Source: a virus. Taken from it: 64,000 nt of DNA. Position 1 is the stretch's first letter. The number at the start of each line of letters is the position of its first letter. Shown here piece by piece: positions 5,426 to 7,638 of the stretch. Position numbers and translations under genes: made by a program. Location: IMG/VR virus record IMGVR_UViG_3300035698_034402, positions 1 to 64,000 of that record; one strand, written 5' to 3'. The notes under the pieces are model-generated. The model saw only the letters and a list, made by a program, of their open reading frames with translations. It searched no databases and was not told the DNA's origin.

Positions 5426-6334
5426 ATGGGCAGCTTTGCTTATGAACTAGGCAAACGGTCCGCTCTTGAAAAACAGGCTTGGCTTGCGGGAGCGGGGGCC
5501 GTGGCTAAGGGCGCGTTGCCCTGGTTGGCGCGTTACGGGAAGAATCTGAAACCGGTAGTCGGCGGCGCAATCAAGAATGCTCCGAAGTTCACTACCGGGG
5601 CGCTGGGGGCGGGCCGGACTGCAACTTCGGCTGGCAAGGGCATGCTCCACGGGGCAACCGGGGGGCGCTGGGCGACTCGTGGCGTCATAGGCGAGACTCC
5701 GTTTCGCTGGGGGCGCGCGGCTACGGATGTCGTGTACAGGAATCCAATGACTGCGTTAATGGGCTTGGGCACGAGCATTCCCACGTTTCGCAGCCCTGAG
5801 ACTAATTGGACCGGAACTCGTTGGACACATCCGCTTGATCCGAACATGAAGTGGACCGGGTTGGACGTGATACCTAGATCGGTTGAGGACTTGCTGTGGG
5901 CCGGGATGCTGGGCAAGCAGGGGCTGAAAGGCGTGCGTCGCAATTGGCGTGGCCTGATGCGCGTCGGCGGGCGGACCGGGAAGGCATACGCGGGGTCGAT
6001 GGGAAGGCTAGCCGGGAGCGTGGGAGGACTTGGCGTTGCTGGATGGCAGGGCCATTCCGGTCTCCAGGGCTTGCGCGGTAGAGAAGGTATGCTTCCTGAG
6101 CAGCTAGTTGGTCAAATGACCGACGAGCAGTGGAACACTATCCAGCATGCGATTCTAGCGGCGGCGCAGGAGCAAGGTTACGGGCAGGGCTATGGGCAAG
6201 GTTATGGTTATGGGCAGGGTTACAATGCACCGGCGAGCCCGGCGCCATCAGCTGGTAATTATGCCGAGGGGCTGGGGCAGAGAGCCTCTAACTACGTCCG
6301 CGGCCTCATTCCGGGACAGGCGGGATTCAGATAG
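5426..6334 (+). CDS. putative internal/ejection virion protein
   Basis: Leader ending LEKQA, then Gly-rich amphipathic segments; GYGQ repeats near the C-terminus. Confidence 0.6.
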   Translation: MGSFAYELGKRSALEKQAWLAGAGAVAKGALPWLARYGKNLKPVVGGAIKNAPKFTTGALGAGRTATSAGKGMLHGATGGRWATRGVIGETPFRWGRAATDVVYRNPMTALMGLGTSIPTFRSPETNWTGTRWTHPLDPNMKWTGLDVIPRSVEDLLWAGMLGKQGLKGVRRNWRGLMRVGGRTGKAYAGSMGRLAGSVGGLGVAGWQGHSGLQGLRGREGMLPEQLVGQMTDEQWNTIQHAILAAAQEQGYGQGYGQGYGYGQGYNAPASPAPSAGNYAEGLGQRASNYVRGLIPGQAGFR

Positions 6335-7638
6335 TGGACGCAGCGCTGTGCTACATCGACAAGTTAGCAGCTCAGTACGAATTCAGCTCCACGCAGGTGG
6401 ATCTGCCTTCGGAGCTGGCGACTGTCGTCCGCCGGATGGCCAGCGAGGTTGCTCCCGCTGATCTCGTCCGCAAGGACGCTACGCCGCACATCACTCTGAA
6501 GTACGGTTTACACGCTACCAACGCTCAGCCGGTGCAATCAGCCCTGGGAGGAGAGGAATCCGTACACGTCCGCTTTGGTAAGACCAAGTTCTTTTCCACG
6601 GCGGACACCGGCAATGAGCACGATGTGGTTTACGTGGAGGTTTTCAGCCCAGCTCTCCGGCGGCTAAACCGCAAGCTGACTGCGTTATTGCCGAGCACGA
6701 TCACGCATCCGAAATATCAGCCCCATGTCACGGTGGCCTATGTGAAGAAAGGTCGCGGTCAAAGATATGCCGGTCGCAGCGATTTGGAGGGGCAGACTAT
6801 GACGTTCTCTGGAGTCCGTTTCTCTACTCGGGGCGGCCGGAGGACCGATATTCCACTGGCCAAAGCGGCACAGTCAGGTCAATGGAAAGGCAGCGTGCCT
6901 TTGTGGTTATCATCCGGTGGTGCGGGCGGGGCCGGACTGGGGCGGTACTTGGCTGCCCCGGTCTTGTCCCGTTTACTGGGTTTGGATCCGAAGCGATCTC
7001 GTCGCACGATGACTATTCTCGGGCTACTGGGGGGCCTGCTGCCCGGGGTTCTGTTGGGCCTGCTCCGGCGCAAGATGAAGGGCAGCTTTTGGGCGCCCGG
7101 GGGTCCGCCGCGAAACCTGCGGGAGCAGCTGTTGAACTGGAGGTATACGCTGGGGGGAGCTACGGGGGCGCATCCTCCGATCCGCTCGACGCCTAAATCG
7201 CAGCCGGTGCCGGTACCGACTTTCTCCGAGCCGCCGACGATGGGGGACTTCCGGAGGCTCAATGAGCCTGCAAAGGGCATGGAGGTGGAATCGTCGGCTA
7301 ACCCCCTGGTGTACAGCGAGGCCCTGTGGAACCCGACCTTCGCGGTGGCCCAGGCCATGGACGAGGTCTCCAATAACCCGATGATCCCTCTGACCCAGCG
7401 AGTCAAGATGCGACAGCTGATTGCCCAGTCTGGGAGAGAGCAGGGCGTAGGGGCCACAGGGGCGGCTAGCGCGGGGGCTCTGATGGAGGCGTTGCCCAAA
7501 GTAGTGCGGTACGCAATACCGACTGTGGGAGGCGCCTGGCTGGCGTCTAAGGCGCTGGGTGCTCCTCGGCGGGTGAAGAACACGGCGATGGGAGCGGCCT
7601 TCGTATACTCGGCGCTCAAGGGCTTCATGGGGAAATGA
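6334..7638 (+). CDS. 2H phosphoesterase (Acb1/LigT-like) fused to Gly-rich hydrophobic domain
   Basis: Two HxT motifs, PHITLKYG (~6487) and PHVTVAY (~6724); the domain is bracketed by KLA and KAA. Confidence 0.8.
   Translation: MDAALCYIDKLAAQYEFSSTQVDLPSELATVVRRMASEVAPADLVRKDATPHITLKYGLHATNAQPVQSALGGEESVHVRFGKTKFFSTADTGNEHDVVYVEVFSPALRRLNRKLTALLPSTITHPKYQPHVTVAYVKKGRGQRYAGRSDLEGQTMTFSGVRFSTRGGRRTDIPLAKAAQSGQWKGSVPLWLSSGGAGGAGLGRYLAAPVLSRLLGLDPKRSRRTMTILGLLGGLLPGVLLGLLRRKMKGSFWAPGGPPRNLREQLLNWRYTLGGATGAHPPIRSTPKSQPVPVPTFSEPPTMGDFRRLNEPAKGMEVESSANPLVYSEALWNPTFAVAQAMDEVSNNPMIPLTQRVKMRQLIAQSGREQGVGATGAASAGALMEALPKVVRYAIPTVGGAWLASKALGAPRRVKNTAMGAAFVYSALKGFMGK

Follow-up and report, generated by a model that had tools for sequence, protein, structure and literature searches.

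Phage enzymes of the 2H phosphoesterase superfamily have been described as stand-alone proteins and as fusions. Acb1, known from T4 (gp57B) and solved for the phages FBB1 (Erwinia phage, PDB 7t26 and 7t27) and BCSR5 (PDB 9q2g and 9q2y; Pfam PF23474), is a stand-alone protein of about 150 amino acids, for which a metal-independent mechanism employing two histidines is described by Hobbs 2022. 2H domains fused to MuF or portal proteins are reported among the polyvalent proteins of phages, where a function as RNases or in the degradation of counter-invader nucleotides was proposed (Iyer 2017, PMC5512222), and a later survey takes such fusions to suggest packaging in the head and injection to counter oligonucleotide signalling (Iyer 2022, PMC9503650). 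The present analysis concerns a gene at positions 6334-7638 (+ strand) of a 64,000-nucleotide window (the whole stretch of DNA analysed, positions 1 to 64,000 of the IMG/VR virus record IMGVR_UViG_3300035698_034402), which encodes a 2H domain of about 165 residues within a protein of 434 amino acids, the remainder being a hydrophobic module, hereafter referred to as the carrier. An initial annotation made from the letters alone had proposed that the product is a pre-packaged, Acb1-like anti-defence enzyme bracketed by K-x-A sites. The concept of a head-packaged 2H enzyme is already in print (2017, 2022); what is new at this locus is the carrier module, the swapping of its cargoes and the K-x-A junction between them.

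In the reading preferred here, to which a probability of roughly 0.4 is given for the chain as a whole, the product of 6334-7638 is a 2H phosphodiesterase, catalytically intact as judged by sequence and fold, which is borne as the N-terminal cargo of a head-associated carrier and is directed at a nucleotide signal. The protein would be built into the prohead through its carrier, and the prohead protease would cut at K-x-A on both flanks of the 2H domain, releasing the enzyme (about 19 kDa) within the capsid. The freed enzyme would enter the cell with the DNA and other head proteins and would hydrolyse cyclic oligonucleotides of cyclic-oligonucleotide-based antiphage signalling systems (CBASS) or of type III CRISPR systems, or 2'-5'-linked signals, from the first moment of infection, by the metal-independent HxT/HxT mechanism of Acb1. 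The parts of this chain differ in strength: packaging of the product in the head, argued by analogy, is likely; cleavage at K-x-A, suggested by the distribution of the motif, has about even odds; and nucleotide second messengers of host defence are put forward as the substrate class only tentatively. The parts of the gene are as follows.

6334..7638, + strand: complete gene for a 2H phosphoesterase joined to the hydrophobic carrier module, 434 amino acids, GTG start
6334..6369, + strand: N-terminal leader of 12 residues ending in K10-L-A, a candidate propeptide, disordered in the model
6370..6861, + strand: 2H phosphoesterase domain, residues ~13-176 (PF13563, 43.3 bits for the domain alone)
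6487..6495, + strand: catalytic motif 1, H52-I-T, invariant in 15 of 15 domains
6724..6732, + strand: catalytic motif 2, H131-V-T, within the conserved stretch P-x-Y-x-P-H-x-T-x-A-Y common with Acb1 proteins
6862..6870, + strand: K177-A-A at the junction of 2H domain and module, a candidate protease site (K-x-A found in the linker of 22 of 30 family members)
6889..7635, + strand: residues 186-434, the carrier module, predicted to consist of two helical hairpins placed around a linker that is variable and disordered, of no known family
7009..7065, + strand: the most strongly hydrophobic segment (residues 226-244), transmembrane-like, with basic residues on either side; its 19 residues average 2.13 on the Kyte-Doolittle scale

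The GTG start overlaps the stop codon of the previous gene by one base, and the N-termini of the relatives align with it. The positions first noted for the two K-x-A sites, 6361 for K10-L-A and 6862 for K177-A-A, proved exact, and the C-terminal part seen as Gly-rich is indeed Gly/Ala-rich over residues 186-434, with a single strong hydrophobic segment at 226-244.

The intact 2H domain with two HxT motifs that had been recognised in the initial annotation was borne out by family models, conservation and fold. In the Pfam scan of the whole protein, PF13563 (2'-5' RNA ligase / 2H superfamily) was matched over residues 26-141 with an E-value of 2.7e-10 and 40.9 bits (cut-off 27), and LigT_PEase with 24.2 bits (cut-off 23.3); the PHROGs match was phrog_755 'RNA ligase' (E 1.8e-7), and the NCBIfam equivalog of LigT/ThpR, TIGR02258, reached 17.1 of the 65.7 bits that its cut-off demands. 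Across 11 full-length relatives H52 and H131 do not vary and T54 and T133 hardly vary, and all four residues are invariant in the 15 2H domains compared from different phages. An AlphaFold model of residues 1-185, built from the alignment of 15 sequences, has a mean predicted local distance difference test (pLDDT) value of 88.7 and a predicted template modelling score of 0.81, with pLDDT below 50 only at residues 1-11 and 182-185; K10-L-A and K177-A-A lie at or beside these segments, outside the folded domain (aligned over ~11-177). The protein thus displays the two H-x-T motifs, the 2H fold and a family-model score above the cut-off by which the superfamily is recognised.

When the model was compared with 996 chains of solved structures, 69 of them scored Z >= 8, and every one of the 45 entries displayed (Z >= 8.8) belongs to the 2H type. 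The ranking is headed by the Deinococcus cyclic phosphodiesterase (CPDase; drCPDase, Z 15.3, 162 residues aligned), Thermus TT0787 (Z 14.8), E. coli LigT (Z 13.9) and human Usb1 (Z 13.7; Z 13.3-13.7 and 161 residues aligned for the Usb1 structures), followed by FBB1 Acb1 (7t26, Z 11.8, 135 of its 137 residues aligned), the phosphodiesterases of rotavirus VP3 and coronavirus ns2 (Z 10.2-11.3) and the BCSR5 enzyme (Z 10.7); Foldseek concurs with this ranking. Both of the folds with which a comparison had been suggested at the outset, Acb1 and LigT, were matched, LigT (Z 13.9) and also CPDase (15.3) more closely than Acb1 (11.8). The LigT/ThpR and CPDase proteins (PDB 5ldi and 5h7e; TIGR02258) are of similar size and account for the best fold matches (Z 13.9-15.3 over 153-162 aligned residues), but they share only 13-17% identity with the domain and are cellular stand-alone enzymes, whereas 6334-7638 is a carrier-fused gene of a phage head module. 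Viral examples of a 2H enzyme that destroys a host nucleotide alarm signal, 2-5A, are the C-terminal 2',5'-phosphodiesterase of rotavirus VP3 and the ns2 protein of coronaviruses; they belong to eukaryotic RNA viruses, and their likeness to 6334-7638 lies in the fold and the catalytic motifs only. Rotavirus VP3 is itself a component of the virus particle. As judged from the model, the fold alone would not name the substrate of the 2H domain.

Sequence profiles place the domain nearer to Acb1. A profile of the 15 domains, searched against solved structures, found as its best match the Acb1 of BCSR5 (Burkholderia phage, 9q2g; E 3.5e-8), followed by the Arabidopsis CPDase (1.7e-6), the Deinococcus CPDase (3.9e-4), FBB1 Acb1 (7t26, 4.2e-4) and the penguinpox cGAMP phosphodiesterase (8.2e-3). 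Acb1 and the penguinpox enzyme act against signalling, which speaks for the preferred reading. The likeness to Acb1 extends from the 2H fold and the HxT/HxT catalytic tetrad, which is present in the 6334-7638 protein, to the stretch P-x-Y-x-[P/A]-H-x-T-x-[A/S]-Y, which includes the second catalytic histidine, and to an aromatic position one strand earlier. In the profile alignment two aromatic positions, F87 and Y128, align with Acb1, in which aromatic residues stack on the bases of the cyclic dinucleotide. The differences lie in the placement of the domain within a longer chain and perhaps in its end: the residues past the last strand are those of the K-A-A linker into which the chain enters, modelled with low confidence, and no counterpart of the C-terminal lid of Acb1, as described by Hobbs 2022, is visible in them. 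Among the clade, the Pfam Acb1 model was touched at E <= 0.01 by 14 of 15 domains and PF13563 was matched by all 15. In single Pfam scans of 11 domain segments (that of 6334-7638 and ten others) and eight whole fusion proteins, the Acb1 cut-off was passed only by the stand-alone proteins of loci L007 (41.2 bits) and L010 (28.4) and by the L015 protein (30.4), and PF13563 scored higher than Acb1 in every single domain segment but that of L007. The 2H domain of 6334-7638 is thus best regarded, on sequence comparison, as a member of a 2H clade that is specific to phages and has Acb1 as its nearest characterised relative, rather than as a demonstrated Acb1.

The argument for packaging draws on the relatives of the domain. 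A scan of IMG/VR with the 11-sequence alignment, in which the frames were read and then submitted to Pfam, yielded 16 viral loci; a metagenome scan gave three loci and a single-protein scan of viral contigs gave none. With the whole protein as the tblastn query, 15 records of a phage collection were matched, all over residues 9-189 only and none over the module. Portal fusions occur in five of the 16 loci. The portal domain scores above its cut-off in L005 (Phage_portal_3 with Pterin_4a and 2H, 1711 amino acids), L006 (Portal_Mu with 2H), L014 (Phage_portal with 2H and a MuF-like end, the latter at 26.6 bits against a cut-off of 29.6) and L016 (Phage_portal with 2H), and in L008 a portal-like and a MuF-like partner both fall under their cut-offs. 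A protein of 2206 amino acids (L004) has the 2H domain beside an LPD3 'large polyvalent protein' domain that is over its cut-off, and L015 and L017 are other fusions. Stand-alone proteins of ~190-200 amino acids are encoded in L007, L009, L010 and L011 (L012 and L013 being the same protein as L011), and L002 and L003 have the architecture of the 6334-7638 protein. With the portal and polyvalent forms the 2H domain of 6334-7638 shares 35-45% identity, with the stand-alone forms 26-30%. In a maximum-likelihood tree of the 15 domains it falls in a group of nine that contains fused forms only, with support of 88/89, which is below the strict threshold; the long branches of L003, L016 and L017 were flagged by the program. 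The fold search in BFVD has as its best hit (E 6e-16) a piece of a protein of more than 1000 amino acids from an uncultured phage, and its hits include actinophage proteins of large size that are annotated as 'putative structural protein' or 'capsid morphogenesis protein'. One further member of the clade, P0018 (451 amino acids, on an 87-kb contig), has the 2H domain fused to His_Phos_1 (PF00300) with no carrier.

The portal and MuF fusions described earlier (Iyer 2017, PMC5512222; Iyer 2022, PMC9503650) therefore share with 6334-7638 the 2H clade, the head-module setting and the predicted logic. They differ in that the partner of the 2H domain in 6334-7638 is an unannotated hydrophobic module, a separate portal gene being placed four genes earlier, and in that the 6334-7638 family swaps cargo and carrier and has a K-x-A junction suggestive of proteolytic release. 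The literature search revealed no report of a packaged Acb1 among the papers listed, with the proviso that supplements may list further fusions.

The phage is uncultured and large, probably of about 200 kb: the source record, an IMG/VR virus of 84,988 bases, is 42% complete by CheckV, and for two syntenic relatives there are complete genomes, of 216.5 and 202.6 kb. All the long open reading frames (ORFs) taken as genes lie on the + strand, and the following landmarks were identified.

1764..3752, + strand: portal gene, 662 amino acids (matched by tblastn to Vibrio phage D69 with E 7e-66 and to the protein annotated as portal in Salmonella phage Arash with E 5e-57)
3801-11311, + strand: seven tightly packed genes, mostly Gly/Ala-rich with hydrophobic stretches, with overlaps or gaps of <= 16 bases
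11578-17019 and 19311-21158, + strand: multisubunit RNA polymerase genes
29050..30417, + strand: candidate prohead protease (weak match to phrog_18299, head maturation protease, E 8.9e-6)
32727-33665, + strand: major head (capsid) protein (weak match)
39540-42434, + strand: tail sheath

The gene 6334-7638 is thus located four genes past the portal gene, with RNA polymerase, head protease and capsid genes further downstream, which is the head-module location reported for effector fusions (Iyer 2017). The structural operon of the initial annotation is accordingly supported, by a one-strand series of genes with a portal, weak protease and capsid matches and a tail sheath. In phage Arash (L018, OQ632216.1) the portal gene is followed by one small gene and then directly by the RNA polymerase beta gene, so that the seven-gene Gly-rich block is an insertion between portal and polymerase.

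Residues 186-434 were found to have no match in Pfam, NCBIfam or PHROG (0 of 11 members in PHROG). The model of the module has a mean pLDDT of 65.4 and consists of two long hairpins of helices, placed around a linker that is disordered and variable; with this model (pLDDT 65) Foldseek gave a best E-value of 1.8, and the ESM Atlas scores did not exceed 0.80, as expected by chance. With a word index 18 relatives of the full-length 6334-7638 protein were retrieved, and a profile search of 1.84 billion representatives gave, among the proteins listed, 23 clear relatives of the module and three distant ones (P0060, P0109, P0122). The module profile retained GNAT columns, and most of its 236 hits at E <= 0.001 are plain acetyltransferases. 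The architectures that contain the module fall into five types: 2H plus module in the 6334-7638 protein, P0003, P0004, P0010 and P0024; 2H plus module plus GNAT in P0005, P0008, P0009, P0019 and P0021, and by alignment only in P0007 and L002; 2H plus module plus a ligase-type tail in P0022 (the L003 protein) and P0023; module plus GNAT without 2H in P0012, P0013, P0014, P0020 and P0025; and the module alone, in proteins of 217-245 amino acids that are possibly fragments, in P0015, P0027, P0028, P0029, P0031 and P0033. From these arrangements, residues 186-434 represent a new carrier module, a swappable dock for 2H, GNAT, both or neither. A conserved element of ~45 residues ends the carriers P0001, P0002, P0006, P0007 and P0014 and forms a separate ORF in L020 (12536-12958); its occurrence as either a tail or a separate ORF is a further sign of gene fusion and fission in the block.

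The junction between cargo and carrier is marked by the K-x-A motif. Of 30 family members, 22 have it in the linker, within the ~37 residues that precede the first hydrophobic helix, where the chance of an occurrence is ~0.19 per sequence, the members being related and hence not independent events. All 19 of the 2H-bearing members have it, as do four without 2H but with a longer leader (P0012-P0015), and the K and A are kept while the flanking residues vary. Reading of the alignment by eye also showed K-x-A or K-x-[S/G] 3-6 residues ahead of the domain in most 2H-bearing relatives, and K-x-[S/G/A] directly past the last helix of the module in members with a C-terminal extension. In the window as a whole, five genes of the head module are enriched in K-x-A at 3-6 times expectation (z 4.0-5.5), the expectation coming from whole-protein shuffles that leave local composition uncorrected.

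25711-26649, + strand: 7 K-x-A seen, 1.2 expected
26583-27998, + strand: 9 seen, 2.8 expected
29050-30417, + strand: 13 seen, 4.4 expected
30478-31686, + strand: 11 seen, 3.8 expected
34125-34652, + strand: 4 seen, 0.7 expected

K-x-[A/S] occurs within the first 36 residues in 11 of the 21 head ORFs (3801-34652) as against 2 of the 21 tail ORFs (34665-63192; Fisher p 0.006), and in none of the three ORFs ahead of the carrier block. The K-N-A at residues 29-31 of the capsid protein is kept in both of the complete relatives, one of which is just 57% identical. The conserved K-x-A at the 2H/module junction and the enrichment of K-x-A in head genes together make processing by a protease plausible, and the pattern resembles what a prohead-protease motif would be expected to look like. 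The bracketing K-x-A sites proposed at first are accordingly present and conserved in position, but the motif is at chance frequency within the 6334-7638 protein itself (3 against 2.6).

Precedents for such processing are offered by the internal head and ejection proteins of large myoviruses (the T4 internal proteins and Alt, and those of SPN3US and phiKZ), which are likewise encoded among head genes, are packaged with DNA and a virion RNA polymerase, and have N-terminal propeptides that are removed at a short motif. Cleavage in the T4 prohead follows Glu and the motif of SPN3US and phiKZ has the form A/S/G-x-E, whereas the conserved candidate motif of the 6334-7638 family is K-x-A. No internal head or ejection protein of this kind is known to carry a 2H domain or the hydrophobic module, although no search was aimed at this point. 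For SPN3US, 14 sites in nine head proteins with propeptides of 20-254 residues are reported, a precedent for processing at a motif, which in SPN3US and phiKZ is described as one of three positions; giant phages such as SPN3US are also reported to package many head proteins, which probably enter the host cell. The idea of a pre-packaged enzyme draws contextual support from the position of the gene, from the fusion of its closest 2H relatives to portal, MuF or polyvalent domains, and from the conservation of the K-x-A junction.

Several observations weigh against the reading of 6334-7638 as a head-delivered, signal-destroying enzyme. With respect to the substrate, the Acb1 model PF23474 falls short of its 27-bit cut-off, with 20.3 bits on the full-length protein, 23.5 on the isolated domain and 16.6 when the genome was searched, and is outscored by PF13563. 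The best fold matches are CPDase, LigT and Usb1 (Z 13.7-15.3), above Acb1 at Z 11.8, a difference that is due partly to the shorter Acb1 chain. The label 'Acb1-like' therefore holds as a statement of resemblance, Acb1 being the best solved relative by profile (E 3.5e-8), but not of membership, given the missed Pfam cut-off, the higher PF13563 score and the closer CPDase, LigT and Usb1 folds. Phosphomonoesterases recur near the 2H domain (a LigD-type phosphoesterase in the adjoining gene, His_Phos_1 in P0018 and Metallophos in L020), which would fit the healing of nucleic acid ends better than the destruction of a signal. With respect to delivery, Pfam reveals no portal, MuF or LPD domain within the 434 amino acids, so that the packaging argument is one of analogy and position, and the transmembrane-like segment 226-244, hydrophobic enough for a membrane helix, suits an anchor in the host membrane as well as it does a capsid protein. 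With respect to processing, the three K-x-A of the 6334-7638 protein are no more than expected (2.6, z 0.3, 500 shuffles). Linker K-x-A is missing in eight family members (P0020 and P0025-P0033), seven of which have short N-termini or no 2H domain and one of which, P0028, has a full-length N-terminal linker; the members that do have the motif share ancestry, as said above. The identification of the protease at 29050-30417 is weak: this candidate has no Pfam, NCBIfam or PDB sequence match, so that its specificity is not arguable from homology, and the literature search found no known prohead protease with a Lys-containing K-x-A specificity.

The gene that follows 6334-7638 carries a second enzyme on a second hydrophobic carrier.

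7655..9340, + strand: LigD-type 3'-phosphoesterase (PE) plus ATP-dependent ligase on a second hydrophobic carrier, of which tail residues ~440-560 are conserved alone in relatives

Five genomes (the window, L002, L003, L019 and L020) share one order of portal, Gly-rich genes, carrier A with the 2H module, carrier B and two genes, and the polymerase follows the carrier block in L002, where the locus extends that far. The PE-ligase is whole only in the window, that is, in one of the five syntenic genomes. An OB-plus-tail piece of it is present in L019 (8352-9188), the ligase tail alone forms a small gene in L002 (12287-12607) and L020 (13021-13374), the tail being ~110 amino acids, and in L003 and P0023 the tail is joined to the end of the 2H protein. 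In L020 a calcineurin-like phosphoesterase of 995 amino acids (9676-12663; Pfam Metallophos, 54 bits) lies between the two carriers and is a candidate cargo or accessory enzyme. In this comparison the carriers are the constant part and the enzymes the add-ons. A bolder version of the preferred reading would see in the Gly-rich hydrophobic block a loading dock used generally by a clade of 200-kb phages, with 2H, GNAT and PE-ligase as interchangeable cargoes freed by a prohead protease of Lys-containing K-x-A specificity (a kind not known among the large myoviruses that were checked), carriers that insert in the host membrane at ejection, and a 2H enzyme that destroys cyclic-oligonucleotide signals before phage gene expression; in this extended form it is improbable.

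The adjoining PE-ligase gene is also the starting point for a different explanation, in which the two genes, 16 bases apart and both on hydrophobic carriers, form a kit for the healing of ends: the 2H enzyme would open a 2',3'-cyclic phosphate, the LigD-type PE would remove the phosphate and the ligase would seal, whether the kit is delivered by the head or produced once the phage has entered. Its targets would be RNA that host ribonucleases have cut, or DNA breaks with ribonucleotide ends. This explanation is rather unlikely. The closeness of the fold to RNA 2',3'-cyclic phosphodiesterases (drCPDase Z 15.3, LigT 13.9) agrees with this proposal, as do the recurring phosphomonoesterases (His_Phos_1 in P0018 and Metallophos between the carriers in L020) and the role proposed for jumbo-phage 2H enzymes in clearing cyclic ends for ligases, as reported in Iyer 2021. 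The syntenic genomes speak otherwise, since the presence of a whole PE-ligase in only one of five indicates that the 2H domain is independent of the ligase, and for this reason the proposal is ranked second. Family scans of 37 of the 47 long + strand ORFs also found no polynucleotide kinase or RNA ligase, the LigT equivalog is far under its cut-off (17.1 against 65.7 bits), and the account of polyvalent proteins in Iyer 2017 (PMC5512222) describes their 2H domains as never associated with RNA ligases.

An equally unlikely explanation takes the module to be a membrane anchor rather than a means of loading. The module would hold the 2H enzyme in the host inner membrane during infection, for instance beside defence effectors or at the sites where proheads start, and might remain there when the head is released. 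The strong transmembrane-like helix at 226-244 with its basic flanks and the two predicted helical hairpins agree with such a function, and the module was never found fused to portal or MuF in the 23 representative relatives (eight scanned with Pfam, the others judged by precomputed Pfam lists or sequence reading). Hydrophobic ejection proteins are nevertheless stored in the capsids of other phages (T7, P22), the gene lies within the portal-to-capsid block, and its nearest 2H relatives are covalently fused to portal proteins, all of which favour the head.

Least probable is a delivered Usb1-like RNase that would trim or cut host or CRISPR RNA early and leave cyclic phosphate ends, which is suggested by the rank of Usb1 among the best fold matches (Z 13.3-13.7, 161 residues) and by the parallel drawn in Iyer 2017 (PMC5512222) with PBECR RNase domains fused to MuF or portal, an RNase being the first option given there for the portal- and MuF-fused 2H, but is opposed by the 15-domain profile, which finds Acb1 and CPDases and no Usb1 at E <= 1, and by the model of the 165-residue domain, in which no RNA-binding extension is visible.

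Some further features of the region were observed. The Gly-rich proteins of 5426-6334 and 9785-11311 are weakly paralogous, sharing 25% identity across 255 residues (E 2e-6, composition correction switched off). The protein of 4780-5409 has low-complexity Ala/Pro-rich stretches in common with 18121-18840 and with the portal C-terminus; over its N-terminal 63 residues it resembles four PHROG families without an assigned function (best E 1e-21) and, weakly, Pfam DUF3008, the remainder being Ala/Pro/Gly-rich. In sequencing runs, two salt lake metagenomes share 0.41 and 0.23 of the sampled words of 6334-9340, the top run possibly being the source sample; no RNA run is among the matches listed, and X3-X5 have small shares. 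The scan of bacterial and archaeal genomes for 2H loci found none and hence gave no prophage pointer to a host.

The known enzymes directed against CBASS or against cyclic oligoadenylates are thought of as made after infection, whereas an enzyme that accompanies the DNA would act before host signalling. A non-enzymatic route is reported in a 2025 preprint, in which an ejection protein blocks a CBASS effector while the signal is left undegraded. Predictions of 2H enzymes delivered by the virion date back to 2017, and the present locus would add a new mode of loading, with K-x-A as a concrete and checkable processing motif. The small size of the 2H domain, its confident model and the ease with which it can be expressed make the question of its substrate accessible at the bench. 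If the carrier logic is true, the adjoining genes in related phages would constitute a catalogue of counter-defence enzymes for the first minute of infection.

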